This document shows positions 1,932-27,368 of a stretch of DNA of 58,116 nt, piece by piece. Positions within the stretch are counted from its first letter, which is position 1; each line of letters starts with the position of its first letter. The notes under the pieces were generated by a model. The model was not told the origin of the DNA. It saw only the letters and a list, made by a program, of their open reading frames with translations, and made no database searches. Source of the stretch: a virus. A program made the translations under genes and the position numbers. The stretch lies in the UHGV virus genome UHGV-0195737; one strand, given 5' to 3'.

Positions 1932-4900
1932 TTAAACCTTTTCGAATAATTGCCCGTCGGTTAGCGCTTTGTGCCAGATACGGAAATTGCGGATGTGTCC
2001 GAATAAGTGGCGCTCACCTGTTGATGTTTGACCGCCGAATCTGATGTTTTTGTCCTGAGTTACTCCACCGTAAGAACATGTTGCATCTGCAACGGCTACA
2101 CCATTCATGATTACATGGAAAGTATCATCATCTTTAACTACCGCACCAATAATGGCCTTATTTGGCAATACGGAAGCGGCGGCGGAATTGATATAAGCTC
2201 CGTCACTTTTGGATAGAGACATGTAATACTTATCGCTACCACGGTTAACCGCAGCGATAACGCCCTGCCCCGTATTAGCGTTGGCAATATCAAAAACACG
2301 CGGCGCGGCGTTTGGCGCTCTGAACCAGTCCTTGTGAAGCTCGATCAGGAAACTGAACGGAGGACGCGCAAGGTTGTTTTTAGTCGTAATGCTTACTAGA
2401 TCGCTCGCACGGGTAGAAGGAGTTGAACCTGAGCAAATATACGATGATGCATTCGGGCCAAGCTCGACTTGAGGTGTCGCTAGTTCCATGTAGTCGCCGG
2501 ACACGAACGCGCTAACCGGAGCAAGCTGAATTTGTGCAGTAACCAGCGTTACGGTTGATTTATACGTCACCACTGCGCGATTCCATCCGGTGATGTTGTC
2601 TGTTGTTACACTAACAGTGATATTGTCTGCACCGCCGCCTGCTTTCGTTACAGTCATGTCGCTTAGTTTGATATACGCATCACACAGGAATGCCAGGCTG
2701 GAAGTATCTTCACCACCAGCAAAACGGATACGCAACCGGACGTCGCTTGACGAACGAAAACGACAAGAAACCGTGACGTACTGTTCATCGTGCTGAGTAG
2801 TGTCGATAACGTTAGCAGTGATCACTGATGCCATGTTGCAAGCACCAGTACCGCCAACTGCACTGTCGTCGATCACGAATTTTCCGTACAGGAAACCGTA
2901 GCTGTCAGTTTCTGCTGTAGCGGTGATATTAGTTGATCGGCCCCAACTTGCAGGAACGCTACCGTTAATAAAGAAGTTTGTGCGAGTACCTTCAATTAAT
3001 AATCCCTCGCGTTCGAAACGTGGCTCATCAATATCAGCAATGGTTAAAACACCGGATTTATTAATATAAGTCGCAGTGCTGGCGCGGGCGAAGCCCACCA
3101 CTTTATCCGACGGGATGGATGTGGTTTCGTCGTTAACCGTTACTTTCTTATAGCCAGGAGCGAAGCCTGCCAGCATATCAAGTGAATCGTTAAACGGTAT
3201 CCATACGTCAGGAAATGGTGCTTCTTCATGAATAAGTGGATCGGATTCGAATTTAGCCCAATCCGTCCAGGTTTCCAAATTGGCGTAATAGGTGCGCATG
3301 TAATACAAACCCGTCGAATTGTACGGGTAATATAATTGCGTGGCCCCGTTTGTATAGTTGCCGTTTTTCAGTACAACCAGTGCACCACCATATTTGCATG
3401 GGTAATGCAGTTCGGTTGTTGCTTTTGATGATGCGCCCTGCCAGTAAACACCGGAATAAGCGGCGGTAAGCGTATCCAGATCGGTGTCAGCTAGTGAGCT
3501 TTTTTGTTCGTGCATAGCGGCAAGGTTGGTGCGGGCCGTGGCTGCATCGTTTGCACCTGTACCACCATGTGATAAATCAAGCGGAATCCATTTTGATTGA
3601 GTGTCGCTATAACAGCCCCACGATGTTCCAGTAAGCCCTAAACGCATAGATGAATCTGCGTTATATACCCAGGTTTCACTACCCCATTGAGCAAGGCGAT
3701 CTACTTTTAAGTTTTCTCTTGCTTCGTCGACTGTTACAGCCCCTGTGCCGCCCTGTTCAATAGCTAACGCCTTCCAGCAATTATCAACCGGACTGTAATA
3801 ACCCCAGCGGCCCGTCGCGTCGAGCTGAAGATAGCACCCTGCTGTCGAGTCGTCCATAGAATAAACTACTGTCCGATTGCTGCCGCTTTGATTAAATCGA
3901 CTAACCTCATTTTTTCTTGCGTGTCGCGTCCATTGTGGGCCAGTGCTTTCACTCCAACGATAAGTATAAAGCGAGCGTGTCCCCCACCCCTGGAAAATGC
4001 CTGTATATGATGGCGAACCATCGTTTACGCTAATGAAGCCTGTTAGATATGCTTCACCGTCCGCGACGTCTTCGGGCCATCCGGTGACGCCTTCGCGAAT
4101 ACGAATAAAGCCAATGTAAGCGGCGGGATTGCCGGAAATATCGGCGCAATCGCGCGGGGCGTTAGTTAGACCAATGTCACCCAATAACACACCAGAACTA
4201 AGAAAACGCGCCCATTCTGACCATGTGAAAGTTGCCGCATCAAAACTACGAAGATAAAACGAAGCATTATAGTTATAAGGGTAATAAATTTGCGTGCATC
4301 CAGAATCAGTATTAGCACTATTCCCAATCACAACAAGCGCACCCGCATTATTGCACGGATAATGGCGATCAGTAGTAGCTTGCGCGTTGAGTTTTTGGCG
4401 ATAAAAACCGGAATACTCGCCCGTGAGCGTATCCAGATCCGTGTCAGCAAGATCGGTTTTTTGCTCGTACATTACTTGTAAATTTGTGCGGGCTTGTCCG
4501 GCGTTACCGCCGCCCGTACCACCATAATTGATGCCTAACTTAATTGCCCCATCAACTGAATAAGCACCCCACCCCGTATTATTCACGAAGATGTAATTTT
4601 GGCCCACGCCGTCCCATAACTGCGTTTCGCCTGTTGAGTTACTCGTCTGCAATAAGCGGCTTACTTCATCCTTCCGGGCGTGACGTGTCCAGCCGTAAGT
4701 CCCATCGGCATTGTTATACATGTATGTATAAAGTGAGCGCGTGTTAGTTCCCACAAAACAGCCGTTAATGATCAGGCCGTCACCGCGTGCCAGCCAGCCT
4801 ACCAAGTAGACTTCACCGGAAGCGATAGACGGGAAACCCGTTGCGGTCGCCTCTTCCAGACGAACAAAGCCAATATAGGCTGATGGGTTAACTGTGCAAT

Positions 4901-5909
4901 CAGGCCAATCACGGCGATCAGCACCCAGGCCAATAAGAGATAGTGAATCTTCTGATAGTGATTTTGCTTGCTCCATGTAGGTTTTGGCGTTCGCTTCCGA
5001 AAGTGCGGCGGCGGTGGCTGATTCTGCGGCGGCGGCGGCATTAGCTGCAATTTCTTGTTCGTCTTCTGCAACATTGGCGGCGCTTGTTTCGGCAGCAGTG
5101 GCGGCTTCTGTAGCGATGGTGGCTTGTTCGGTTGCTGTGGTCGCTGATTCTGCGGCGTTATTCATCCAGATGTACGCCGTGCCGCGATGATCTTTTGCCT
5201 CTGCGGCGGCGGCCGCGGCGGCGGTGGCTTGTTCGGTCGCTACGGCTGCCTGTTCAGTTGCGACGGTTGCTTGCGCGGCGGCTTCGTCACGGGCCGTTTC
5301 GGTAGCGGTCTGCGCGGTCTGCGCGGCGCTGGCGGCATTAGTGGCGATGGTGGCTTGTTCGGTTGCCGTGGTCGCCTGCGTGGTGGCGGTGGCGGCATGT
5401 TTCCCAGCCAGTACGCTGTAATCTTCTGCGGCATTTTTCGCGGTAATAGCTTCATCCCGCGCGGCGGCGGTTGTTTCAACGTCTGCGGCGGTCGCGGCGG
5501 CGTTGGCGTTTGATTGCGCTGTTTCTGCCTGAATAGCGGCTAACAGTGCTTCAACCTGCGCGGCATCACCATAATTTTTCCAGTATTCGACGGCAGCATA
5601 GATCTCTGATTCTTGTCCGGTGAAATAGCGCAATGCCTCCGCTACGTCCTGGGCCAGCCCGTCAACCGAGATCGAATCGCACAGCAAAATACTGTAAGCA
5701 GTACCCGCCGGAATATCCGGTGATGCTGCCGGGGTTACAGACAATTCCGTTTCACTGACAATTTCAGTGATAGAAAAGATCTGAATGGGGTTACTTTTTA
5801 CGATAACAGTACACCCCACGCGGATCATGGATAGCGGCGCTTTAAAATTCGTACCCGTCCCGGTCAGCGTGTTACCGGATACGGCAATGCTTCCAATGGT
5901 GTAGATCAT
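1932..5909 (-). CDS. Long tail fibre protein, repeat-rich
   Basis: 1325 aa; Ala/Thr/Gln-rich low-complexity segment; two tandem copies of a ~250-aa module (TRHARK-EVSR, HYPC-GALVV-YYPYN). Confidence 0.65.
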   Translation of the reverse strand: MIYTIGSIAVSGNTLTGTGTNFKAPLSMIRVGCTVIVKSNPIQIFSITEIVSETELSVTPAASPDIPAGTAYSILLCDSISVDGLAQDVAEALRYFTGQESEIYAAVEYWKNYGDAAQVEALLAAIQAETAQSNANAAATAADVETTAAARDEAITAKNAAEDYSVLAGKHAATATTQATTATEQATIATNAASAAQTAQTATETARDEAAAQATVATEQAAVATEQATAAAAAAAEAKDHRGTAYIWMNNAAESATTATEQATIATEAATAAETSAANVAEDEQEIAANAAAAAESATAAALSEANAKTYMEQAKSLSEDSLSLIGLGADRRDWPDCTVNPSAYIGFVRLEEATATGFPSIASGEVYLVGWLARGDGLIINGCFVGTNTRSLYTYMYNNADGTYGWTRHARKDEVSRLLQTSNSTGETQLWDGVGQNYIFVNNTGWGAYSVDGAIKLGINYGGTGGGNAGQARTNLQVMYEQKTDLADTDLDTLTGEYSGFYRQKLNAQATTDRHYPCNNAGALVVIGNSANTDSGCTQIYYPYNYNASFYLRSFDAATFTWSEWARFLSSGVLLGDIGLTNAPRDCADISGNPAAYIGFIRIREGVTGWPEDVADGEAYLTGFISVNDGSPSYTGIFQGWGTRSLYTYRWSESTGPQWTRHARKNEVSRFNQSGSNRTVVYSMDDSTAGCYLQLDATGRWGYYSPVDNCWKALAIEQGGTGAVTVDEARENLKVDRLAQWGSETWVYNADSSMRLGLTGTSWGCYSDTQSKWIPLDLSHGGTGANDAATARTNLAAMHEQKSSLADTDLDTLTAAYSGVYWQGASSKATTELHYPCKYGGALVVLKNGNYTNGATQLYYPYNSTGLYYMRTYYANLETWTDWAKFESDPLIHEEAPFPDVWIPFNDSLDMLAGFAPGYKKVTVNDETTSIPSDKVVGFARASTATYINKSGVLTIADIDEPRFEREGLLIEGTRTNFFINGSVPASWGRSTNITATAETDSYGFLYGKFVIDDSAVGGTGACNMASVITANVIDTTQHDEQYVTVSCRFRSSSDVRLRIRFAGGEDTSSLAFLCDAYIKLSDMTVTKAGGGADNITVSVTTDNITGWNRAVVTYKSTVTLVTAQIQLAPVSAFVSGDYMELATPQVELGPNASSYICSGSTPSTRASDLVSITTKNNLARPPFSFLIELHKDWFRAPNAAPRVFDIANANTGQGVIAAVNRGSDKYYMSLSKSDGAYINSAAASVLPNKAIIGAVVKDDDTFHVIMNGVAVADATCSYGGVTQDKNIRFGGQTSTGERHLFGHIRNFRIWHKALTDGQLFEKV
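4990..5520. repeat. GC-rich tandem coding repeats inside fibre gene
   Basis: Repeated GGTGGCTTGTTCGGT-type units encoding AT(E/A)QAT-like repeats. Confidence 0.5.
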
Positions 5910-7265: not shown

Positions 7266-10200
7266 TTACCATGATCCGGTAATTCGCCCAATCTGGACGC
7301 GTAACACGCTATTTCCATCTCTGACAGAGATTGTTGTGTTCGTCCATTTCATCGCTCCTTCACCGCTTACTGATCCGTAGTTTTCGAATGTACCGGATTT
7401 ATCCAGCTTCCAGCCAGTACTACCGGAAACATAGTTATTTGACTGGATGTAAGATCCAATTTTCGCGTTAGTGATTGAGGCGTCTTTAATAAACGCTTCG
7501 CGCACATACATTGCACCATTTGTGACATAGAAAGGCGTTGTATATGTGCCGTTTGCCGCTGTCATTAATACAAAGCGGTCAGCAAGGAAAATACATTGCG
7601 ATTGCGTACTCGTACCGCTGCCAGTCAAGCCAAGCGAGATCCCGGAAAAATATTTCATGCCGTTGTTGTCTGCGGCGATCTTAACGCTCCACGTTGCCGA
7701 CATGTCGGTTTCAAGGCCAGCGATGGCGGTTTTATTTTCCTCAATTGATACCGATTGCCCCTCGATTGACGCCGTAATACTTTCAATCTGCGTGGCGGTC
7801 GATTCCTTATAGGTTGTAAACGCTTCGCTCCACTCCGTGATCGACGCCTCGTTTGCTTCCAGCGATGCGCTAATTTCCGCAAACTGAGTAGCATTAGCTT
7901 GTTCATGGGTGGCAAGCGCGGATTGCATTTCGGTAATAGCTGCCGCCACATCGTCGTCTATTTGCGCCTGTAGTTGCTCCAGCTTCTGCGCGGTTGCTTG
8001 TTCATTGGTTGCGATCGTCTGATTAGTTTCAGTGATTGCAGCCTCATTCTCATCAATCTGACTTTGCAGGCTATTAAACTGCGTAGCGTTGGCTTTTTCG
8101 TGGGTAGCGAGTGCTTGCTCCATGTTGCTTATTGCTGACGATATATCACCATCTACTTTAGCCTCAAGGTTGCTAATAGATTCAGATGTGGATGATTCCA
8201 GATCGGTGATCGTCTGGTTAATCTCCGTTATGCTTGCCTGAATATCTTCGTTGACCTGGCTTTCTAATTTTTCGATCGACTGGCTTGTCGAACTTTCAAG
8301 CGTTGCAATGGTTTGTTGCAGTTCGGTTACGTTGGCGCTGATTTCGTCATTGACCTTGCTTTCGAGTGTCGTAAGCGCCTGCGCGGTCGCTTCTTTCTCT
8401 GTAGCGATCACAGTGTCGATGCGCTCAATCTCCGCCTTCGTTTCTGCTTTCTGGTTTTTATACTGTGCCGTCAACGTGGTGCGCGTGCTGGTGTTAGCCA
8501 GTGAGTTATTCATAAGCGCAATAGCTGCGTTTTGCAGGCTGGCGCGTGTCTGGATTAGTTCATTTTCCTGTTCAGTTAACTCGACGCTGATTTCGTTGAT
8601 CTGGCTTTCATGTTCTCCAATTCCATCCTCATTGTTTTTCACGCGTTCTTCCAGGTCTGCGGTCGATTCTTTCAGATCGGTAACAGCCTGGTCAATATCT
8701 ACCGTGGTTTGTTTCAGTTCTTCCACATCGCCCATCAAGCCGCCTGTTACCTCGTCGATGGTTTCTTTAATCATGTCCTGAAATTGCTCACCCTCCATAA
8801 CTTCATTCAGCACGGCATCCGTGATTTCTTCGAAGTTTTCGGACGGCTTACCACTGGCTTCGATAAAGTCAGATACGCCGAAAGCGTTTTTTGTGCGCAC
8901 GTAAACGTAATACGTGTGGCCCGTTGCCATCCCGCCAAAAGTCCACTGATAGCCGCGCCCGGAAAATTGCGCTGATGTTGTTACCAGTGAGAAGTCAGTA
9001 ATCTGGTTTTCTCCAGCGTAATAGAATTCGTAAGTAGTATCAGTCGTTAGCGTGCTGTTGCTGATCGGGTAAACAGTCGCCTGAAAAACACCTGGCACCC
9101 AATTAACACCAGTCGGCGCGGCAGGCGCACCAACAATAAGATCTACCAGTGTTTCCGCTCCCTTCATCCCGGTGTCATTGCGCCCACGAATACCAAGCGA
9201 ATAATTACCGCACTCAAGGCCGAAAAAGTCATACCGGTAATTTTGCGTTTCGTAGCTCGCCACCACGCGCCCGTCGGTGTCATAAATGCGGATCTCAAAG
9301 GTTAATGCGCGGGTAGTGGTTTGAGTTTCCCAGGTGGCGCGGCATTGAACTGTTTCCGATCCAATGTTTATCACTTTCAGGTTTTCGATGTTCGGTACAC
9401 GGAAGTGATTCAGCGTGTCGCTGTTAACCTCAAAGATTGCGCCCTCATCGACAACCGCTTGCTTGTTCGGATCGTGCTGCGCGGCCTCAATGGTGTATAC
9501 GCTGTTATTTTCGGTTTCGGCTACGCTAGTGATTCGACATAAAACGGGTTTTGCCGCTTCGGTTGATACAGCAAATACAGTACCGTTCCGAATCCATGCC
9601 GGGGCCGCCGCTAAGGTGATCTCGTTTCCATTCACTCCGGTGATCTGGTGTTTTTTAAATTTACCATCGCTATCGAGCAAGCTGATGGTGTCGCCTGCCG
9701 TAATGTACTCGCTATCAACCTTATCAACCGTTATCACGTTCCCGTTATTCGCCACGATACGACCGCCTAAACGCGCGCCAGCACGGTTATTATCGAGAAT
9801 CTCGATAATATCCCCTGGTGTAAAGTGAATCGCGTCACGGGCCATTTTAAACGTGAATTTCGACGGCTCGCGTTTTGCTGTTTCTATCAGCCATTTGCCC
9901 GCGCGGTACGCTTGCCCGCGTGATGTACAGCCGAACGCCTCCAGTGTGGTTTCATTGTAACCATCGCGGGCGATTAGCTCATCATCCGCTACATACTCTT
10001 TTGATTGCTCCCAGCCGTTTTCCGGATCAGTCCAGGATACAATCACGGCGTTGTAACATTCCGCACGCGCAATGCTTGAACGGGTGAATGCACCATCAAC
10101 GACGTTTGCGTTTGTGATGGTTGCAATCGGATCTTGCGGTGCATCGAGCATTACAGTAAGTGTTTGACCGTCCCATAACGCAATCCCCCGGAACATTCCG

Positions 10201-11243
10201 GCAATGTTGTCCAGTAAGTCGCGGGCGCTCATTTGCTCCGTAATGTATGCATTAAGCGTCACGCGCGGCTCAAGGCCGCCATAACCATCGTCAACCAACT
10301 GATCGCAGTATTGGGAAAGCGTGTATAATGCGCCGTCGTCAACGTCAATATAACCAGCATGGCGGGCAAGGCCAAAACGCTCGTTTTTAACCAGATACCG
10401 GAAGATCCACGCTGGGTTATTGGTGTACACCTGTTTCATCCCGCCCAGCCATAAACCGGAATAAGTGCGCGTTTCCGGATCGTAGTTATCCGGTACATCA
10501 ACAATCAGGCCACGCATGTGATAAGTGCGTGTCGGCGTGTCGGTATACTGGTCATGATCAATCACCGCGCCCGCTACAGCGGTGTGAGGATAAGACAAGT
10601 TATCGTCGATAATTTCACTGTAGCTATTCCAGCGGGTATCATTCTGCAATAGATCGCCCGTGCTGTCAGGTGTTATGCGGCGAACGCGAATATCGAACGG
10701 TTTTTCGTCCGGCGCATCAATGATGTGTGATTCCAGATATTCACCGCTAATCTTACCCGGACCGATTTGCACGGCCTTAATCGCCGACCAGATTGATGAT
10801 GATGATGGTTTTACATCAATCGCCATAAAAACTGATGTTTCATGCTGGTTTGATTCGCTGTCACTTTCCACCAGTGAATCCACGCCAATATTCAACCGGA
10901 CGCGCGTCACGTTCGGATCTGATACCGTCCTTACCAGTGGCGTGTCATATTTCACCTGCGCGTTAACCATTACCGTAGATTCAATGGCGTTGAAGCCGTT
11001 GATCGGTGACTGGTCGGCAGTACCCGGACGCCAGGCGACGCTAACGCCTGGGATACTGGTATTACCCACGGCATCCGTAACAGGTGTGTCATTAAGCATT
11101 ACGCAGTTTAACGGGGCAGCGGTATTGACCGGACCGTAAATCGGCCCTTCACTCAATATATCCAGAACCCGGTAAAATTGCTTATGAAATAAATTGTCGT
11201 TTATTAATGTTGGTGTTTTTGCTTTACCACCGCCGCCGCCCAT
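7266..11243 (-). CDS. J: Host specificity / tail tip protein J-like
   Basis: N-terminus matches lambda J as recalled (DxxSEGPIxGPV, NDTPV); long central coiled-coil repeat region; position after I. Confidence 0.8.
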   Translation of the reverse strand: MGGGGGKAKTPTLINDNLFHKQFYRVLDILSEGPIYGPVNTAAPLNCVMLNDTPVTDAVGNTSIPGVSVAWRPGTADQSPINGFNAIESTVMVNAQVKYDTPLVRTVSDPNVTRVRLNIGVDSLVESDSESNQHETSVFMAIDVKPSSSSIWSAIKAVQIGPGKISGEYLESHIIDAPDEKPFDIRVRRITPDSTGDLLQNDTRWNSYSEIIDDNLSYPHTAVAGAVIDHDQYTDTPTRTYHMRGLIVDVPDNYDPETRTYSGLWLGGMKQVYTNNPAWIFRYLVKNERFGLARHAGYIDVDDGALYTLSQYCDQLVDDGYGGLEPRVTLNAYITEQMSARDLLDNIAGMFRGIALWDGQTLTVMLDAPQDPIATITNANVVDGAFTRSSIARAECYNAVIVSWTDPENGWEQSKEYVADDELIARDGYNETTLEAFGCTSRGQAYRAGKWLIETAKREPSKFTFKMARDAIHFTPGDIIEILDNNRAGARLGGRIVANNGNVITVDKVDSEYITAGDTISLLDSDGKFKKHQITGVNGNEITLAAAPAWIRNGTVFAVSTEAAKPVLCRITSVAETENNSVYTIEAAQHDPNKQAVVDEGAIFEVNSDTLNHFRVPNIENLKVINIGSETVQCRATWETQTTTRALTFEIRIYDTDGRVVASYETQNYRYDFFGLECGNYSLGIRGRNDTGMKGAETLVDLIVGAPAAPTGVNWVPGVFQATVYPISNSTLTTDTTYEFYYAGENQITDFSLVTTSAQFSGRGYQWTFGGMATGHTYYVYVRTKNAFGVSDFIEASGKPSENFEEITDAVLNEVMEGEQFQDMIKETIDEVTGGLMGDVEELKQTTVDIDQAVTDLKESTADLEERVKNNEDGIGEHESQINEISVELTEQENELIQTRASLQNAAIALMNNSLANTSTRTTLTAQYKNQKAETKAEIERIDTVIATEKEATAQALTTLESKVNDEISANVTELQQTIATLESSTSQSIEKLESQVNEDIQASITEINQTITDLESSTSESISNLEAKVDGDISSAISNMEQALATHEKANATQFNSLQSQIDENEAAITETNQTIATNEQATAQKLEQLQAQIDDDVAAAITEMQSALATHEQANATQFAEISASLEANEASITEWSEAFTTYKESTATQIESITASIEGQSVSIEENKTAIAGLETDMSATWSVKIAADNNGMKYFSGISLGLTGSGTSTQSQCIFLADRFVLMTAANGTYTTPFYVTNGAMYVREAFIKDASITNAKIGSYIQSNNYVSGSTGWKLDKSGTFENYGSVSGEGAMKWTNTTISVRDGNSVLRVQIGRITGSW

Positions 11244-12462: not shown

Positions 12463-13167
12463 TTAACCTACCTTACTGGACCCCGGAAAACAGGAGATTG
12501 GCAGTGCCGCCGGGCGCGGGAAACGTAAACGGCAACCGCTCAAGCGGTGGCTGCACCGATCTAATGTTGGATCATTAGTCGGAACGTCTTTGTCTGTTGC
12601 AACTGGCCCGCCAGCGTAACCACATCCATCACCTTTGTATTGCCACTGGCAAACGTCCGCAAGAATGGTGCGGCCAGGGATAATGGCTTTATCTTCATCA
12701 ATTGGCGTTGCCAGTTCATATTGCACCTGGTCGGCGGTTTCTTCGCTCATAGCTTCAATGACGTAAACCGATACCGCTTCAATAGATGGATCTGCATCGG
12801 GATTGCCATTAGGGAAGTTAATGGCATCCAGATATTTTACCTCCACCTGGCGGCGCGTTACCTTCATCCCCCGAAGGTCGTTGTAATCGGTGTTCATTCC
12901 GGTAATAAGCCCTTCAATGTTGGCTACAGCCATTTGGGGCCGTGAATAAACACCCTCGTTTTTCATTTCGAAGCCTGTCGCCTCGATCGGGTAGCTGTTG
13001 TAAGCTACGCCCTTCCAGATAACCGGGCCGTAATAGCCGTTCGCGCCGGAATGGAAGCGGATAACCTCGCCTCCCAGGGGCGTAAGGTCCAGTTCGAACA
13101 AGTCAATGATTGCGCCGACTCCCGCATCGACGGAATCAATAATCATCTCTGTAGGTATATTGCGCAT
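12463..13167 (-). CDS. L: Minor tail protein L
   Basis: Matches lambda L as recalled (IDLTxxGGE, GDxCGYxG, RCSxxLSGCxxR); start set at ATG with SD instead of track TTG. Confidence 0.75.
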   Translation of the reverse strand: MRNIPTEMIIDSVDAGVGAIIDLFELDLTPLGGEVIRFHSGANGYYGPVIWKGVAYNSYPIEATGFEMKNEGVYSRPQMAVANIEGLITGMNTDYNDLRGMKVTRRQVEVKYLDAINFPNGNPDADPSIEAVSVYVIEAMSEETADQVQYELATPIDEDKAIIPGRTILADVCQWQYKGDGCGYAGGPVATDKDVPTNDPTLDRCSHRLSGCRLRFPRPAALPISCFPGSSKVG

Positions 13168-13299
13168 TTTCTCACCTTTCGATTTTGTGATCTGCGTCAC
13201 GCTAAATCGCGCCAAAATGGATTGATCGCGATTTTTACAATATGTATATTTTACTCAAACGAAGGGGAAGTTAACAAAACGGCATAAAAGGGGTACGGG

Positions 13300-13467
13300 A
13301 TGAACGATAAGCTATGGCGGCTAACCTTGTTTATGAGTAGCGGGCGTGATGTTGAGGCTGAATTCGATAATCCCAGCGACGCATTGGAAACAGCTCTCGA
13401 CCTGTCAGAAAAAGATGATCGCGTCCTGGGCTACCGGATTAAACCGATTAAAAACGGGGATCAGTAG
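13300..13467 (+). CDS. Hypothetical small protein (moron cassette b)
   Basis: 55-aa ORF, not in ORF track; SD AAAGGGG; first gene of plus-strand cassette. Confidence 0.4.
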   Translation: MNDKLWRLTLFMSSGRDVEAEFDNPSDALETALDLSEKDDRVLGYRIKPIKNGDQ

Positions 13468-13468
13468 G

Positions 13469-13819
13469 ATGCAAAAATATAAGCTCGAAGTGTTTACGGA
13501 TCGGTGCAATTGGGAATGTATAGGTTTATATGACACAGACGTTAAAGCACATACGGAAGGGCGAGAACTGCTGCGATGTTGGTCTAATGCCCGCGACTAT
13601 GTGGTCACTCCAGTACAAATAGCGGAAAAGGTGGAAGATATGAAATACGATATTGATAACAATGCTTGTTTTAAAGAAAACCTTGCGGATTCTATGGATC
13701 AATCTTGCCCGGAAATACACGCGCACGGTTTCCCGGCAGACGACCCGAAAGCAAAACAGGAATACGAAAAAGCGGCAAAAGATTTCTGCATCGATAACCT
13801 GGGCGCTTTCAATAAATAA
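13469..13819 (+). CDS. Hypothetical protein (moron cassette b)
   Basis: 116 aa from internal ATG of track ORF 13346-13819; coupled to upstream ORF. Confidence 0.5.
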   Translation: MQKYKLEVFTDRCNWECIGLYDTDVKAHTEGRELLRCWSNARDYVVTPVQIAEKVEDMKYDIDNNACFKENLADSMDQSCPEIHAHGFPADDPKAKQEYEKAAKDFCIDNLGAFNK

Positions 13820-13828
13820 GGTGGCAGT

Positions 13829-14077
13829 ATGGCGCGGCGTAATCACGGAGACTATGTATACACGTTGAAACAAGCCGCCCGCCTTATCGGTTATCATGAG
13901 CACGAATTTATTGATTTGCTGATTGAGCGCGGGATTTTGTACCAGGTCTGTTTAACGCTGTACCCGAAAGCGAAATATTTGCAGGAAAAGTTATTCATCA
14001 TCATGACGGATGAAAACCAGGTTAATCATTCATTCGTCACTGACAAGGGCGTTAATTATCTGCGTGATAACCTGTAG
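13829..14077 (+). CDS. Putative small DNA-binding protein (excisionase/HTH_17-like)
   Basis: 82 aa; YTLKQAARLIGYHEHEFIDLLIERGIL resembles Xis/AlpA-type HTH. Confidence 0.4.
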   Translation: MARRNHGDYVYTLKQAARLIGYHEHEFIDLLIERGILYQVCLTLYPKAKYLQEKLFIIMTDENQVNHSFVTDKGVNYLRDNL

Positions 14078-14085
14078 GACCGCAT

Positions 14086-14289
14086 ATGTTAAAGTACGAC
14101 GGGCAAGAAACAGTCAGGTTTACTGGTTTTACTAAGGGGAACAATAAGGAGCTAACAGAATATTTTAGCTTAGATATTGGCGATGTTTACCGAGTAGAAA
14201 AATACTTACCCTCAATTAATTCTTTCATAATCATTAACAAAGAAAATCAAGGGGTGCTTGTTACATTCAACGAAGTGGAGTTGCCTTAA
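14086..14289 (+). CDS. Hypothetical protein (moron cassette b)
   Basis: 67-aa ORF in operon-like spacing. Confidence 0.4.
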   Translation: MLKYDGQETVRFTGFTKGNNKELTEYFSLDIGDVYRVEKYLPSINSFIIINKENQGVLVTFNEVELP

Positions 14290-14370
14290 ATGAATAGAGT
14301 GGACGAAGTAATTGAAAATGTTCTGGTAGTGGCTGGCGCAATCGCCATTGTTTATGCCTTTCTGAATTAA
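14290..14370 (+). CDS. Putative hydrophobic microprotein (26 aa)
   Basis: ATG overlaps upstream stop (TAAATG); single predicted TM helix. Confidence 0.25.
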   Translation: MNRVDEVIENVLVVAGAIAIVYAFLN

Positions 14371-14381
14371 CGGAGTGAATC

Positions 14382-14519
14382 ATGAAAATCGAAGTTTTAG
14401 CACTAATAGCAATGGGATTGATAGTATTTGGCGTACACGCTGCGGATTTGGACTGGTGCGCAATAGCTGAGAATATGGCACACGCTCACCCAATGGGATT
14501 GATGCACATGAACTTCTAA
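14382..14519 (+). CDS. Putative secreted peptide (45 aa)
   Basis: SD GGAG; N-terminal signal peptide ending VHA-AD; His-rich C-terminus. Confidence 0.35.
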   Translation: MKIEVLALIAMGLIVFGVHAADLDWCAIAENMAHAHPMGLMHMNF

Positions 14520-14528
14520 CACGAAAAA

Positions 14529-14557
14529 CCCCGCTCCGGCGGGGTGTTATTTTATTT
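14529..14557 (+). terminator. Rho-independent terminator of cassette b
   Basis: CCCCGC-TCCG-GCGGGG stem-loop followed by TGTTATTTTATTT. Confidence 0.6.
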
Positions 14558-14639
14558 GTCGTTCCGGCTATCGATTTCGTAAAAAATAGCCATACCTACC
14601 GCGATAATGAATACCATTACTAAACCATCAATCAGCATA

Positions 14640-14825
14640 TTAAACGCCCTCAATCAGAAATAAATACTCCTTCCCTTCGTATGATCTGCATCCCACATAC
14701 CCGTCGCCGTAGTCATGCAGATACCAGGTGTCGCCCTTGTCACTCACTACCGTGAGGTTATCGATCTGATAGTCTTCGAATAGCGTAAATGATTCATCGC
14801 CCGTCTTAACGCACATCCCGTACAT
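14640..14825 (-). CDS. Hypothetical small protein
   Basis: 61-aa ORF immediately downstream of M. Confidence 0.35.
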   Translation of the reverse strand: MYGMCVKTGDESFTLFEDYQIDNLTVVSDKGDTWYLHDYGDGYVGCRSYEGKEYLFLIEGV

Positions 14826-14834
14826 GTTGCCCCC

Positions 14835-15188
14835 TTAATTGATAACTTGTTCAAATGTCGCGGTTAGCGTGTATACAGGGCCGTCTTTCGTCATGTTCCA
14901 TTTTCGGCAGACAAAAAGCCTTTGCTCCCCATCCATTGATGGTGTCCAGTAAAACGCCTCGACCGCGCCGCGCGCCCGTAAAAACGCCTCTGCCTGGACC
15001 GCTGGATTGCCAGCGTCACCACATCCGGCGCTCGAACCTTTAAAAACCACGCTGTAGTCGTCGAGCAAGGGATTAATCCCCTTAACCTGGCGTTGCTCAT
15101 AACCATCACCCAGCTTGACGACCGATACGTTTGGCTCCCTGGTTACGCTGTAGCTTCGCTGCGGCGTCCAGGTAAACACTTCCGGCAT
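14835..15188 (-). CDS. M: Minor tail protein M
   Basis: Matches lambda M as recalled (GDGYxQR, YSV, C-terminal FEQVIN); SD GGGGGAAG. Confidence 0.8.
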   Translation of the reverse strand: MPEVFTWTPQRSYSVTREPNVSVVKLGDGYEQRQVKGINPLLDDYSVVFKGSSAGCGDAGNPAVQAEAFLRARGAVEAFYWTPSMDGEQRLFVCRKWNMTKDGPVYTLTATFEQVIN

Positions 15189-15216
15189 ACTTCCCCCTAT
15201 AAGTTACATTTTGTGT

Positions 15217-15245
15217 ACATCTTTACGCGTTGCTACGCGAAAAAT
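15217..15245. repeat. 29-bp conserved hairpin element, copy 1
   Basis: ACATCTTTACGCGTTGCTACGCGAAAAAT; 28/29 identical to 27307-27335; upstream of M. Confidence 0.5.
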
Positions 15246-15356
15246 GAGATATTCATCACAAGAATTATAACCAGTTTACAAAATGGCTTCACACAGGACG
15301 CAACAAGATGTATATAGAAAGCAAGAAGAAAGCAGTACCAACAAAGGAGGCCCAAG

Positions 15357-15524
15357 ATGAAAGGCAACGATAAACACTACGCAGTCGTAATGCTTAACGA
15401 CGCATTCGAACAAGTAGAAGTAGCGATTGTTAAAGGCTTCGATGATGCGTTCAAAATGGGCCAGTTCTACATGAACGTGAAAGCAAACGAATATCGGGAT
15501 TTCTACCTGAAAGCGGTCAACTAA
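15357..15524 (+). CDS. Hypothetical small protein (moron cassette c)
   Basis: 55-aa ORF with strong SD AAGGAGG; not in ORF track. Confidence 0.45.
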   Translation: MKGNDKHYAVVMLNDAFEQVEVAIVKGFDDAFKMGQFYMNVKANEYRDFYLKAVN

Positions 15525-15542
15525 GGATGATGGGGGTGGGCT

Positions 15543-15797
15543 ATGAAACTGGTAGCGATTGATAAAAACCTGAAAGCACAGAAAAACGCACAGGACCGGA
15601 TCATCAAAAAAGGTAAGGCTTTATTAAACGCTTTCCTGAGAAAAGAAGCCTACCCCAAAAAATTACGCGATGGATACGGCTACAAAATGGATATTAACCC
15701 CGACTGGCGGCTTTACAGTCAGGACTTAAAGGTTTGGTTAATTGTTGAACACCACAAATACAATGAATTATGCGGCGTGCGCGGTTGCCATAAGTGA
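15543..15797 (+). CDS. Hypothetical basic protein (moron cassette c)
   Basis: 84 aa, Lys-rich, C-terminal HHKYNELCGVRGCHK; SD GGGGGTGGG. Confidence 0.45.
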   Translation: MKLVAIDKNLKAQKNAQDRIIKKGKALLNAFLRKEAYPKKLRDGYGYKMDINPDWRLYSQDLKVWLIVEHHKYNELCGVRGCHK

Positions 15798-15805
15798 GGT
15801 GGGAT

Positions 15806-15898
15806 ATGGAAGATGATAAATTTACATGGCGGGAGATCTGGAATATTTGGCAGGTGATTTTCGGAAGGGGATATGTCGCGCGGAATGGTCGATTATAG
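15806..15898 (+). CDS. Putative microprotein (30 aa)
   Basis: SD GAGGTGGG then ATG; Trp-rich. Confidence 0.25.
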   Translation: MEDDKFTWREIWNIWQVIFGRGYVARNGRL

Positions 15899-15904
15899 GG
15901 GTAA

Positions 15905-16087
15905 ATGATGATTATTAATGAAACGGAAGAATGTAGGCGAATCACTCTTAGCATTGAGTATGACGAAAGATTATGGCTTGAAAGCGACTGCGAACTTATC
16001 GTAATAGACAAAAAGCAAGCCGCCGAACTAATAAAAGCATTACAGCTTTATGTAAACAACGAATTTAAAAACGACGAAGTTGAATAA
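15905..16087 (+). CDS. Hypothetical acidic protein (moron cassette c)
   Basis: 60-aa ORF, AT-rich codon usage unlike flanking tail genes. Confidence 0.4.
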   Translation: MMIINETEECRRITLSIEYDERLWLESDCELIVIDKKQAAELIKALQLYVNNEFKNDEVE

Positions 16088-16094
16088 AAGATAA

Positions 16095-16125
16095 CCCCGG
16101 CATTGTACCGGGGTTTTGTTTATTT
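16095..16125 (+). terminator. Bidirectional rho-independent terminator (cassette c / H)
   Basis: CCCCGG-CATTGTA-CCGGGG followed by TTTTGTTTATTT; T-rich on the other strand as well. Confidence 0.6.
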
Positions 16126-18462
16126 GCGGCGTGGTTGCAATATGCCGCCAGGACGCGTGCTTTGTTCTCTGACTACACTCATAGCTACGCGCTTCATTGT
16201 GTCTTCAAGTCTGCGGCTATCATCATCACTAAAACCGTTTGTCGTTTGAACTGTGATACTGACAGGCATGTTGATGCCACCGCTGCCGCCCAGGTCGCGG
16301 CCTGGTGTAACACGCCCACCTTCACCGGGGATCATGTACTGTTTCCCGCCAGTGGTAGTAAACAGTTCTGGTATACCGTGCTCACCAACCCTGTAAAGAT
16401 TGCCACCGTTAACCGCGCCGCCGTTGTAGCGCCCGCCGCCGAAAATCGACGTCGCCAGTGACATGATCGCGGATAGTGCCGCCGCGCCAGCCGCCGCCCA
16501 GCTACCGCCAGTTGACGCCGCTGTCGCCGCTGCCGCCGGGGCCGCTGCCGCTGCAATCTGACCTTGCGCCGCTACCGCGCCAGCCGTGGTGCTGGCTTGC
16601 GTTGCCTTACTCTGACTTTCCATCATGATTTGATCGGCTATCCAGTTCCCGGCAATGTCGGCAAGCCTGTTACCCACCGTACCGAGTATATTGCTTCCCA
16701 GGTTAGCAAACATCTCACTGAGGGATTGCGTACCGTTCAATAATCCGGTGATAGCGTTGCTCATGCCGCCTTTTAAGCCGCTGACGCAATCGCCTATTAG
16801 GGCGTTAGTATCGCTTTGCGCCTGCCATTGTTCCCACTTCAGGTTGGCGATGGTTTGCTCATGCTGGAGTTGTTCAGCCCGGATTTGTGCCTCTGAGGCG
16901 TTCAGATCTAACAACATTTGCTTACGGATGGCCCATTCATTTTGCGCCTGCTGAATGGGATCTACTTGCCCTTTGAGTTTATCCATAGGATTAATCATGT
17001 TATCCCATTTATCTTGCAAGGCTTCGGCTTCAAGTCCAGCCAGCGTGCGATCCCTTTCTTCTCTTATGCCCTTCATAGCGCCTTTGTATTCAAGGAGCGT
17101 GATTTTGCCCTGGGCGAAGGCAGCATCAATGGCCATGCCGCTCTTTAATGCTTTGCGCATGGCGGCGGCGTCTTTGTTGTACTGGTCGGAAACACTGATA
17201 CCCTGATCGCCTAAGCGGTCATAGTCTGATTTTTTCGCTTTCTTCTGTTTTTTCGGCTTGCCAACTGGTTTGTCAAATCCGGTGATACTGCCATCATTAT
17301 TTGAGGCTTGTTCTTCCTTCTGCGCTTCTTCTGTGCGTTTAAGCATTCCTTGATGGTCTTCCCATGCTAACATCGCCCAACCTAAGCGTTTACCGTATTT
17401 CTTGAACGGATCGCTGTTATATTCATCCTTGCTTTTTCCGACCAATTCCTTCGCCCACTTATAAGCATCCATCATTGCCTTAATTGGCGTCACCATTTCG
17501 ATGATCTTGTCGGCAACCTCCTTAGCCTTAACCGCAACATCATCAAACATGTCGATAAACTCACCTCCAGCGCGCTTCAATGTATTAAAGCAGTTAGCTG
17601 CAAAACTCACTTTTTCGCCCAGCCATCGTCCACCAGTGGCAGTATTATCCAGGATAGTGACCACTCTGTCTGACACGCCTAATAGATCATCGAGTTTTTC
17701 AACCAGTCCCATGACTTCGATTTTTAGCGAATTGAACGCAACGCCGGACGTGCGCGGGAGTTGTTCAAATTGCTCGTTTGTTTCTTTCGTTGCCGCCTGG
17801 ATAGCGTTGACCATTCTTTCAGCGGTGATCTTACCTTCCAGCATTTCGGCGCGGAACTGGCCCATTGATAACCCCATTTGTTTTGCCATTGTTTGTACGA
17901 TGGTTGGGGTGTTTTCCAGTAAACTGTTAAATTCTTCCGCACGCAGTACGCCGCCGTCAACCGCCTGCCGGAATTGGCGCATGGAGTTAGACATTTGTTC
18001 GGCTGATGCCCCGCCTAACGCCCCCATTTTTTGAAGCGTGCCTACCAGATTAAGGATCTGCCCTTCGGTGGCAGATGTATTTTTTAATGAGATGGCTAAA
18101 CCTTGCCATAGGTCGGTTGTATCTTTAATACTTTGCCCGGTCTGGTGAGCGATAGATTTAAGGCCATCAAAAACCCGGTTTGCGCTTTCTGCGTCACCTG
18201 TCAGCATTTTGATTTTTATGCGTAGCTGTTTTGCCTGCTCTGCCATGTCAATAAACTGGCGCACGGCCTCCGCTGCGACTAACAGGTGGATAACCCTGGT
18301 CAGTGCTTTGATTGATGTTTTCAGTGTATTAACCTGGCGGTCAGCACGTTTTGCGCCGCGCTCGATACTGTCGAATGTCTGATCGGCCTGTCGCTGTACG
18401 ACAAGGAGTTGCCCTGTTTTGGCGTCGATCTCGTAATAAATTGTACCTAAACTGGTAGCCAT
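16120..18462 (-). CDS. H: Tail tape measure protein
   Basis: 780 aa, long alpha-helical protein with Ala/Gly-rich C-terminal segment; sits between chaperone and M. Confidence 0.85.
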   Translation of the reverse strand: MATSLGTIYYEIDAKTGQLLVVQRQADQTFDSIERGAKRADRQVNTLKTSIKALTRVIHLLVAAEAVRQFIDMAEQAKQLRIKIKMLTGDAESANRVFDGLKSIAHQTGQSIKDTTDLWQGLAISLKNTSATEGQILNLVGTLQKMGALGGASAEQMSNSMRQFRQAVDGGVLRAEEFNSLLENTPTIVQTMAKQMGLSMGQFRAEMLEGKITAERMVNAIQAATKETNEQFEQLPRTSGVAFNSLKIEVMGLVEKLDDLLGVSDRVVTILDNTATGGRWLGEKVSFAANCFNTLKRAGGEFIDMFDDVAVKAKEVADKIIEMVTPIKAMMDAYKWAKELVGKSKDEYNSDPFKKYGKRLGWAMLAWEDHQGMLKRTEEAQKEEQASNNDGSITGFDKPVGKPKKQKKAKKSDYDRLGDQGISVSDQYNKDAAAMRKALKSGMAIDAAFAQGKITLLEYKGAMKGIREERDRTLAGLEAEALQDKWDNMINPMDKLKGQVDPIQQAQNEWAIRKQMLLDLNASEAQIRAEQLQHEQTIANLKWEQWQAQSDTNALIGDCVSGLKGGMSNAITGLLNGTQSLSEMFANLGSNILGTVGNRLADIAGNWIADQIMMESQSKATQASTTAGAVAAQGQIAAAAAPAAAATAASTGGSWAAAGAAALSAIMSLATSIFGGGRYNGGAVNGGNLYRVGEHGIPELFTTTGGKQYMIPGEGGRVTPGRDLGGSGGINMPVSITVQTTNGFSDDDSRRLEDTMKRVAMSVVREQSTRPGGILQPRRK

Positions 18463-18500
18463 GATTTAACCTCATACAAAATGTGATCTGTGCCTCTATT

Positions 18501-18542
18501 TTATACAAAATGGCTTTACTTTACCGACTCCATTTTGTATAA
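18501..18542. promoter_or_regulatory. Perfect 13-bp inverted repeat (putative regulator binding site)
   Basis: TTATACAAAATGG-N16-CCATTTTGTATAA upstream of plus-strand cassette d. Confidence 0.4.
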
Positions 18543-18593
18543 GGAAGTCAAAGGAAAAGATAGTTAAACAAAACAATTAAGTGGGGGTGTTTT

Positions 18594-18818
18594 ATGAAAC
18601 GTTATGATGGTATCTATGAAAAAATTGGTGGCTTCCACAAAGGCGAACAATTTAAAATCATCGACGGCGAAGTGTACGCCGGGAGAAACAATAACAAGGA
18701 ATGGGAGCACATTGATCACCCAGCACAAAAGGAAGCCTGGTTGAGATTAGTTAAAGGGTTTCAAGTCGGCAATAGAATCATTAAAGACAAAAACATTGTA
18801 AAAATTGCTGATATTTAA
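18594..18818 (+). CDS. Hypothetical protein (moron cassette d)
   Basis: 74-aa ORF with SD GTGGGGG. Confidence 0.45.
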   Translation: MKRYDGIYEKIGGFHKGEQFKIIDGEVYAGRNNNKEWEHIDHPAQKEAWLRLVKGFQVGNRIIKDKNIVKIADI

Positions 18819-18829
18819 CGGGGTGTTTT

Positions 18830-19183
18830 ATGAAACGGTTAGCGAAAGTAGTAATGATGGTGGCGCTGGTTGGTTTTGCATTTAACGCCCACGCCGACGA
18901 TAAAATGGATAAGGCTATTTATGAATGCGCTCACGCCGCGCACCTGTACGACATAAGACACGGTGACGGTACGGGGTATAAAGAAATTATTTTTGACATG
19001 GCGTGTAAACAAAAAGCCTTAATACCATTTCTTGACAAGGAAATAGTTAAAGCAAGAAAAATACACGAAAAATACGAAGCATTGAAAGCGGAAAATAAAG
19101 ATCCCGAAGTCGCGGAAGTGTTCAGACATGGAGAAATAAAGGGGCACGCAATCCATAACAGAATCAACGCTGGCGCGGCCTAA
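18830..19183 (+). CDS. Secreted/periplasmic protein of unknown function
   Basis: 117 aa; signal peptide ending AFNAHA-DD; conserved Cys pair. Confidence 0.5.
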   Translation: MKRLAKVVMMVALVGFAFNAHADDKMDKAIYECAHAAHLYDIRHGDGTGYKEIIFDMACKQKALIPFLDKEIVKARKIHEKYEALKAENKDPEVAEVFRHGEIKGHAIHNRINAGAA

Positions 19184-19193
19184 TAAACAAAAC

Positions 19194-19216
19194 GCCCGGA
19201 TCTACCGGGCTTTTTT
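19194..19216 (+). terminator. Bidirectional rho-independent terminator
   Basis: GCCCGGA-TCTA-CCGGGC followed by TTTTTT; T-tract on the other strand too. Confidence 0.6.
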
Positions 19217-19879
19217 CTGCCTGCGATTTTTCATTCTTTCCAGTGCCTTTCTAGCGGCCTCCATTCGCTCGTCATAAACCTGTTTATTTATCTGAACGTT
19301 TGGTTTAGCTTTCTCGTTTTTCGCGTCTGGCGGCATTTTAGCGCGTACAGCGGCCCTATATCCGGTCATGGTCATGGCCCATGCTTCCGATTCAGATAAT
19401 CCCAGGTGAGCAACGGCAGAATAAACGAATTCCAGCACGTTAAAGGCTGGCTTATATTCCCCTTCCGGGATCTCTCCGGCGTCTTCTTCCGGCCCGTCAC
19501 CGATTAGACCGTGGTACATGCAATGCTGTGCCAGCGTGATAATATCTTCGGTTGGCATTAATCCGGGTTTCTGTCGTAGCTTGCCCGCAGGAGTAAATCG
19601 ACATTCGCCCACCAGGTCTGTTATATCGTCGTCAGAGCAACATTTCAGGATATGGATGGACGATTGCACTATCTCACCATAACACCGCGCCAGAATGCGA
19701 TTACGGAGGTCTGGATCGTTAGGCAGGCGGGAGGGATACTTGCTACCGTGAATGGTTGCGAATAACTGGACAAGCTCACGATCGCCGCCAATTTTCGCCA
19801 TTGCAGCGAAGCAGGGGTTAAACACGTAGCGTTTATTATCCACCACCGCCGCAAATTGTCCGGTACGAACATGAATCAT
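19202..19879 (-). CDS. Putative tail assembly chaperone
   Basis: Position between major tail gene and tape measure; start set at ATG with SD GGTGA; no frameshift partner seen. Confidence 0.4.
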   Translation of the reverse strand: MIHVRTGQFAAVVDNKRYVFNPCFAAMAKIGGDRELVQLFATIHGSKYPSRLPNDPDLRNRILARCYGEIVQSSIHILKCCSDDDITDLVGECRFTPAGKLRQKPGLMPTEDIITLAQHCMYHGLIGDGPEEDAGEIPEGEYKPAFNVLEFVYSAVAHLGLSESEAWAMTMTGYRAAVRAKMPPDAKNEKAKPNVQINKQVYDERMEAARKALERMKNRRQKKAR

Positions 19880-27306: not shown

Positions 27307-27335
27307 TACATGTTTACGCGTTGCTACGCGAAAAA
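27307..27335. repeat. 29-bp conserved hairpin element, copy 2
   Basis: ACATGTTTACGCGTTGCTACGCGAAAAAT between terminase and portal genes. Confidence 0.5.
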
Positions 27336-27368
27336 TAGAAAAATTTGTGGGGGATTGTGAGGCAGATT

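Follow-up and report, generated by a model that had tools for sequence, protein, structure and literature searches.

The DNA analysed here is the virus genome UHGV-0195737 (58,116 nt, referred to as the window). Our subject is a small plus-strand gene cassette at 15189-16125, located between the gene of the tail tip protein M and the tail length tape measure gene. With moderate confidence, we read this region as a moron-like accessory operon that is complete in itself, lies antisense within the late tail operon of an mEp021-like phage, and carries a gene for a toxin-like protein, ORF2 (ORF, open reading frame). This reading is based on four conserved genes, on a candidate promoter and a terminator that delimit them, and on the fold predicted for ORF2.

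The window represents a temperate siphophage or prophage that resembles mEp021 and belongs to the mEpimmI group, which has been described recently (PMC11893012). Its morphogenesis genes are located on the minus strand. For comparisons, 52 related loci were gathered from GenBank phages, Escherichia coli chromosomes, and IMG/VR. The IMG/VR contig UViG_3300045988_076772 (locus L008) has 100% protein identity with the window over 5.2 kb around the cassette. For the cassette DNA, matches with ~80-90% identity were obtained in six mEp phages and in 33 E. coli chromosomes.

The cassette contains four genes

In the original prediction, the region was described as a plus-strand unit of four ORFs of 55, 84, 30, and 60 amino acids (aa) with strong Shine-Dalgarno (SD) sites, AT-rich relative to the tail genes. 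The positions of the four ORFs were correct and selection is seen on all of them, but of two 30-aa frames, only the one at 15806-15898 is a gene. The ratio of non-synonymous to synonymous substitution rates (dN/dS) was calculated by the Nei-Gojobori method for the relatives against the window, and medians were taken over 12-38 distinct relatives per frame. As the median dN/dS in the four frames is 0.076-0.137 (Table 1), these substitution patterns identify four real genes under strong purifying selection. SD-like motifs precede all four genes, namely AAAGGAGG, GGGGGTGGG, GAGGTGGG, and AGGGGT in the order of Table 1, and neighbouring genes are spaced by 6-18 nt. The GC content of 15189-16125 is 0.410 and falls within the lowest 4% of 937-nt windows; M and the tape measure gene have values of 0.537 and 0.509, respectively. 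The AT-rich composition was thus described correctly. The extent was slightly too long, as its end overshoots by 6 nt into the tape measure gene; the gap between the two tail genes spans 15189-16119.

Short ORFs such as these (30-84 aa) could be chance reading frames in a non-coding spacer, and the second listed 30-aa frame at 15826-15918, which overlaps ORF3, is indeed non-coding: it had a dN/dS of ~1.27 and was rejected as a gene. For the four genes, however, this explanation is already refuted by dN/dS values of 0.08-0.14, with dS in the gene comparisons reaching ~1.9. Moreover, the genes are kept in 24-52 loci, and matches to Pfam and PHROG families exist. We therefore give the chance-frame explanation virtually no weight; the conservation on which the original prediction depended was found.

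Table 1 Features of the cassette, its surroundings, and inserted genes in related loci (window positions unless a locus is named)
Feature	Position	Strand	Remarks
ORF1, 55 aa	15357-15524	+	Mildly acidic, isoelectric point (pI) 5.6; SD AAAGGAGG; dN/dS 0.076
ORF2, 84 aa	15543-15797	+	Basic, pI 9.8; predicted RelE/ParE-superfamily fold, Pfam ParE_like; dN/dS 0.101
ORF3, 30-aa Trp-rich microprotein MEDDKFTWREIWNIWQVIFGRGYVARNGRL	15806-15898	+	dN/dS 0.087
ORF4, 60 aa	15905-16087	+	Acidic, pI 4.4; variable accessory gene; dN/dS 0.137
Candidate sigma-70 promoter	15288-15316	+	-35 TTCACA 15288-15293; 17-nt spacer; -10 TATATA 15311-15316
Bidirectional intrinsic terminator	16093-16115	both	Common to cassette (+) and tape measure gene (-); hairpin scores terminator-like on both strands
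30-nt element	15216-15245	-	Contains TACGCG-N4-TACGCG; late-strand leader of M
M, tail tip protein, lambda gpM homolog, 117 aa	14835-15188	-	Left boundary; tblastn
Tail length tape measure gene, 780 aa	16120-18462	-	Right boundary; homologs annotated tape measure protein
L/M-junction cassette	~13216-14551	+	GC 0.429; terminator 14528-14545
Cassette upstream of tape measure gene	~18463-19201	opposite to tail genes	GC 0.398; bidirectional terminator 19194-19210
HNH_3 insertions in relatives	L005 2088-2570; L047; mEp515		L047: 168-aa ORF starting 12 nt before ORF2 stop

Candidate promoter and terminator of the cassette

The cassette was proposed to be a separate unit on the opposite strand with a bidirectional terminator, and both points are borne out. 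A candidate sigma-70 promoter precedes ORF1 (Table 1), with a predicted transcription start near 15322. The pattern TTCA(C/T)N, 17 nt, TATA(T/C)A is present in all 46 distinct M-to-ORF1 intergenic sequences; the spacer occurs in 27 different sequences and its length is fixed. Conserved hexamers separated by a variable spacer of fixed length are the pattern that a sigma-70 promoter should produce.

At the other end, the hairpin shared with the tape measure gene has folding energies of -15.3 and -16.8 kcal/mol on the two strands (z -3.0 and -3.6 against shuffled controls). Of 53 loci, 52 have a GC-rich hairpin next to the stop codon of the tape measure gene. Since three unrelated stem sequence types occur at the same place, the terminator is conserved as a structure.

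ORF2 is predicted to have a RelE/ParE-toxin fold

ORF2 matches the Pfam family PF24732 (ParE_like) with 44.1 bits at a cutoff of 24.4, and its homologs are named "ParE family toxin-like protein" in RefSeq. A first AlphaFold model, for which only close homologs were used, had a predicted local distance difference test score (pLDDT) of 74 and gave no relevant structural matches. Distant members, obtained by searching 1.84 billion representatives with a profile and by a word-indexed search, were then used to rebuild the alignment. The second AlphaFold (AF2) model reached a pLDDT of 87 and a predicted template modelling score (pTM) of 0.76, and the top structural matches of this confident model are RelE, YafQ, YoeB, HigB, and ParE toxins. 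According to the model, ORF2 has the RelE/ParE-toxin fold. Structure prediction and remote homology searches had been suggested as a check; run on ORF2, they supplied with this model and the PF24732 match the main functional clue, which was missed in the first reading of the 84-aa protein.

K40, L41, R56, and H70 are invariant in the ORF2 family. ORF2 was aligned by MAFFT with RelE, YoeB, and YafQ sequences that had been checked against PDB entries. The invariant R56 aligns with the catalytic residues R61 of RelE and R65 of YoeB, and Y/F73 aligns with Y87 of RelE, in an alignment that has 20-23% identity and is statistically unsupported. Because of this, we only lean towards a ribosome-dependent mRNA endonuclease of the RelE/YoeB/YafQ type rather than a gyrase poison of the ParE type.

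ORF2 also departs from the known RelE/YoeB/YafQ/HigB and ParE toxins. It matches the separate family PF24732 only and none of the canonical RelE/ParE family models. The ORF2 model has one N-terminal helix after a beta-hairpin, whereas the N-terminus of RelE/ParE-superfamily toxins usually consists of two helices. Furthermore, a recognisable antitoxin is not found beside ORF2, and the family is essentially phage-borne, as described below.

The 84-aa product had been described as Lys-rich with a possible metal-binding tail. The first part is correct, as 19 of the 84 residues are Lys or Arg, the pI is 9.8, and the C-terminal end reads HHKYNELCGVRGCHK. That ORF2 is a small protein binding metal through C-terminal His and Cys residues is, however, very improbable. 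The ending of the window protein would fit, and the close clade shows no variation at G81, H83, and K84. Yet C82 is replaced by Ala and H71 by Leu in most homologs, C77 by Ser, Thr, or Val in some, and the tail is wholly absent from more distant family members. The last four residues (81-84) are modelled as disordered with pLDDT <50.

Variation of the cassette among relatives

A unit on the opposite strand between M and the tape measure gene is present in all 52 loci, with lengths from 681 to 2075 bp. The minimal cassette consists of ORF1 and ORF2. ORF2 is found in every locus and ORF1 in 49; ORF3 is intact in ~32, and the ORF4 family occurs in 24, in one of them as a tandem duplicate. In E. 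coli RM9245 (L001, ~3848-4206), two tandem paralogs of the ORF4 family encode 59 aa each. Other variable small genes comprise a 56-66-aa family, a 95-aa family (phrog_1443), and a zinc-ribbon protein in mEp021.

The M gene of the window phage was detected in 35 of 5426 complete E. coli genomes (~0.6%). As all 35 carry ORF2 beside M and 34 also carry ORF1, the ORF1-ORF2 core is, by this gene content, a fixed component of the lineage, and swap-site behaviour is confined to the 3' part of the operon.

Some relatives have an HNH_3 endonuclease gene (160-168 aa) that sits precisely at the junction of ORF2 with ORF3 as an insertion and overlaps the end of ORF2 (Table 1). It looks like a free-standing homing endonuclease that invaded the cassette.

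Products of ORF1, ORF3, and ORF4

For these three products, matches were limited to PHROG families of unknown function, or none were obtained, and NCBIfam gave no match for any cassette product.

ORF1: The protein matches phrog_29810 (unknown function) with E 3.5e-28. Searches of Pfam, NCBIfam, PADLOC, and PDB gave no match. Homologs were found in mEp021-like phages only. ORF1 is a candidate for a lineage-specific partner of ORF2, as an antitoxin or a modulator.

ORF3: The SD motif of ORF3 overlaps the stop codon of ORF2, and ORF3 is probably translationally coupled to ORF2. Its dN/dS of 0.087 rests on 27 distinct relatives. In most database records, this gene is unannotated. The family (DDKFTWRE..NIW..GRL) has members in ~120 phage records, mostly of rV5-like myoviruses of ~136-140 kb. 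Homologs also occur in two metagenomic contigs resembling virulent phages (L054, ~142-261; L061, 1436-1549), where a ParE_like gene lies ~2.5 kb away.

ORF4: The variable accessory protein matches phrog_13627 with E 2.4e-9.

Proposed function of the cassette

We regard it as plausible that ORF1 and ORF2 form a classical toxin-antitoxin pair. The two genes are small, adjacent, and co-oriented, the toxin homolog is second, the stop codon of ORF1 lies 18 nt before the start of ORF2, and both would use the same candidate promoter. Their charges differ (pI 5.6 and 9.8), as fits such a pair, and the genes co-occur in 49 of 52 loci at a distance of 17-20 nt. Because three loci keep an intact ORF2 without ORF1, ORF1 is not an indispensable antidote. 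With these loci and with distant ORF2 homologs that stand alone, the pair is rated as plausible only.

According to the interpretation that we favour, the candidate promoter would be independent of the late operon, so that the prophage would express the unit, as would the phage early in infection. As a toxin-like inhibitor, ORF2 would more likely be a ribosome-dependent mRNA endonuclease of the RelE/YoeB/YafQ type than a ParE-type gyrase poison, and it would be restrained by the upstream partner ORF1, a low level of expression, or the two together. In lytic growth, antiterminated late transcription would cross the cassette on the other strand and switch it off. By analogy with known phage operons, we infer that the cassette is on in lysogens and in early infection and off during late transcription. 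The benefit would be that competing phages are excluded through abortive infection or that the prophage is stabilised.

Several findings from the window and from other phages are consistent with such switching. The late operon of the window must cross three bidirectional terminators (19194-19210, 16093-16115, and 14528-14545), and N-like and Q-like antitermination is described for mEpimmI phages (PMC11893012). Where antisense genes lie within phage operons, these genes are switched by life-cycle-specific transcription (PMC11364771, PMC11087260). For tha/ith of 80alpha, mutually exclusive transcription states were shown experimentally (PMC11087260); taiEcA of phi80 interrupts a Q-dependent late operon, and the same switching was proposed (PMC11364771).

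A number of observations weigh against this interpretation. ORF1 is cleanly absent from E. coli UMNK88 (L006), L024, and L034, where ORF2 is intact with all invariant residues. No antitoxin family matches ORF1, nor can a DNA-binding domain be recognised in it. No recurring partner gene was found beside the distant ORF2 homologs. HMMER searches of PDB sequences with ORF2 and the family profiles gave no match, and hhalign of the ORF2 family profile against single YafQ and RelE sequences gave nothing significant. None of five candidate products matched a PADLOC-DB defence model at E <= 1. The candidate -10 hexamer lacks the conserved final T, and for this reason a consensus promoter scan missed the promoter. 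Finally, a core that is constant throughout the lineage instead of sporadic is unusual for a moron.

With respect to the first of these points, the ORF1-less variants (L006, E. coli UMNK88, 1335-1501; L024; L034) look like recombinant replacements of the 5' end of the cassette and not like simple deletions. All three have a weaker -35 hexamer (TTCACT), another promoter spacer, and another leader.

The distribution of the ORF2 family bears on a different explanation. Among 1.84 billion proteins, no more than 10 representatives matched the ORF2 profile. A scan of 185,579 species-representative bacterial genomes yielded no true relative; its one match was spurious and lay inside an unrelated 205-aa ORF. 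Distant homologs with 24-50% identity are encoded in long same-strand arrays of small genes in the terminal-repeat early region of ~350-kb jumbo phages (for example, phAPEC6, K64-1, Muenster, and GAP32). In one jumbo phage, the depositors named the homolog "putative YafQ-like ribonuclease toxin" (HHpred 97.7% to 4MMG). Further homologs are found in contigs similar to 150-kb virulent phages, in a contig with ParA/ParB, and in early operons of other temperate phages. Relatives of ORF1 were not found near the distant ORF2 homologs. By these searches, the ORF2 family is essentially phage-borne.

This distribution keeps alive the alternative that ORF2 is a solitary phage effector from a phage-restricted branch of the RelE fold, which phages would use themselves, for example, to alter host translation or against co-infecting phages. 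ORF1, ORF3, and ORF4 would then be unrelated small accessory proteins encoded in the same transcription unit. We consider this possible, though doubtful. It would account for homologs in jumbo-phage early arrays, virulent-like contigs, and temperate early operons that share no neighbour, for the 10 matching representatives and the lack of true bacterial relatives, and for the three loci that keep ORF2 without ORF1. It does not account well for the tight linkage of ORF1 and ORF2 in the mEp021 lineage (49 of 52 loci, 17-20 nt) or for the constraint on ORF1, which is stronger than that on ORF2 (dN/dS 0.076 and 0.10, respectively). In addition, a constitutive, unrestrained RelE-like ribonuclease should harm the lysogen, and the weaker -35 hexamer and different leader of the ORF1-less loci could be a compensation.

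The fixed position could also be explained if the cassette served the phage's own lytic development, for example, in tail assembly or late gene regulation. All 35 E. coli prophages carry ORF2 and all IMG/VR relatives the core, the cassette is embedded in the tail module, and the same intergenic region holds a conserved element in common with the leader of the portal gene. That element, however, belongs to the late strand and lies outside the cassette transcript. The cassette itself runs against the tail genes and has a promoter and a terminator of its own, its AT-rich composition is unlike that of the tail genes, and relatives of ORF2 occur in non-tail contexts. Moreover, lambda and many relatives build tails with H and M adjacent, and ES18 has unrelated genes at this site. 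Hence, we regard a lytic role as quite unlikely.

The element in question is the 30-nt sequence in the late-strand leader of M (Table 1). It recurs at 27307-27336 with one mismatch, and its 24-nt core TTTACGCGTTGCTACGCGAAAAAT is identical at 15222-15245 and 27313-27336. Both copies of the core lie on the minus strand just upstream of a start codon, one at M and the other at the portal gene. The two 30-nt elements are also found in mEp021 with small differences. The repeat TACGCG-N4-TACGCG was considered as an operator for autoregulation of the cassette promoter and rejected, since the same 24-mer precedes the portal gene. For the same reason, the element is assigned to the late-gene leader of M and not to the cassette. 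It can fold into a short CGCG hairpin and could be a late-mRNA processing signal, a translation signal, or a protein-binding site. An Rfam scan of 12800-19600 found no RNA families.

More speculatively, PF24732 as a whole may be a branch of the RelE fold that is specific to phages, needs no antitoxin, and provides them with translation-targeting weapons. These would be placed in an antisense unit, switched off by late transcription, in temperate mEpimmI phages and in first-injected early arrays in virulent jumbo and rV5-like phages, and ORF1 and the widespread 30-aa microprotein would be lineage-specific modulators and not classical antitoxins. We rate this as rather improbable.

If the function proposed in our preferred reading is true, a common group of gut coliphages has a fixed toxin-like module that is tied to the life cycle purely by antisense placement. 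The cassette would then be a compact example of how a prophage keeps a dangerous gene on in lysogeny and off in its own lytic growth. It would also offer the first functional handle on the uncharacterised RelE-fold family PF24732, which is otherwise found in jumbo-phage early regions, where a classical addiction role makes no sense. The present result is mostly one of annotation: four real genes, including a 30-aa microprotein that most records miss, a candidate promoter and a terminator, and a hotspot known before from ES18.

Comparison with known systems

Morons: For morons as defined by Hendrix and Juhala, the prototype is HK97 gene 15, the first moron described, which lies between the tail chaperone and tape measure genes (PMC3594210). 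Like morons, the cassette is a unit from promoter to terminator, placed between tail genes that are adjacent in relatives, with deviant GC content (PMC3594210), and expression from the prophage is presumed. Unlike the prototype with its one inner-membrane exclusion protein, it encodes four small soluble proteins. Also, the core is a constant feature of the entire mEpimmI lineage, and sporadic presence is seen only for the 3' genes (ORF3, ORF4, and others).

ES18 gp22 and gp25: These genes of the Salmonella phage ES18 (AY736146) are annotated as "possible morons". As in the window, they are opposite to the tail genes, with gp22 at the tape measure/M junction and gp25 at the M/L junction. The terminator likewise adjoins the upstream tail gene, and the M proteins are 70% identical. 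In contrast to the window, ES18 has one gene per site, and the gp22 and gp25 proteins have no sequence similarity to the cassette.

PaaR2-PaaA2-ParE2: In this module of E. coli O157:H7 and in other prophage ParE/RelE modules, neither gene is similar in sequence to those of the cassette. A PaaR2-like regulator is missing here, and ORF1 is dispensable in three natural variants.

Noncontiguous operons: The proteins of phi80 taiEcA and 80alpha tha/ith are unrelated to those of the cassette, and switching is only inferred here.

The original prediction saw the tail operon as a repeated insertion platform. This holds in so far as the window has two further cassettes of this kind, ES18 uses the same junctions, and H and M are adjacent (overlapping or abutting) in lambda and many relatives; it does not hold in that the core is not sporadic within the lineage. 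The platform reading is supported but already known, as it was recognised in ES18. Modestly new are the findings that a RelE/ParE-fold gene, fixed in the lineage, anchors the cassette, that its partner is dispensable, and that the family is confined to phages. In the searchable literature, we found no study on the cassette or on PF24732.

Flanking genes and further cassettes

The window M has 32% identity with lambda M (E 6e-10), and its identity with ES18 M refers to gp23; both values were obtained by tblastn. Homologs of M are labelled "phage tail protein" in RefSeq. The genes for gpJ, gpL, the tail tube protein, and the integrase were confirmed at other places in the window. Two 1325-aa ORFs at 1932-5909 and 7266-11243 were considered as duplicates and rejected because they are unrelated; they encode a fibre-like protein and gpJ, respectively.

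The L/M cassette encodes five small proteins, including an 82-aa protein with a KilAC domain (antirepressor-like, 13829-14077) and a 45-aa hydrophobic peptide (14382-14519). A consensus promoter-like site is located at 13222-13250.

The cassette at 18463-19201 encodes a 74-aa protein and a 117-aa protein, the latter with an N-terminal segment resembling a signal peptide (MKRLAKVVMMVALVGFAFNAHA). Neither protein has a match in Pfam or PHROG. The gene beyond this cassette, which the original prediction placed at a G/H junction, encodes a DUF6246 protein and is not a recognisable homolog of lambda G/T.

Between M and the L/M cassette, the minus strand (14552-14825) encodes a 61-aa protein (phrog_3249) and a 33-aa hydrophobic protein. 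In ES18, M is also followed directly by a "possible moron" on the same strand, gp24.

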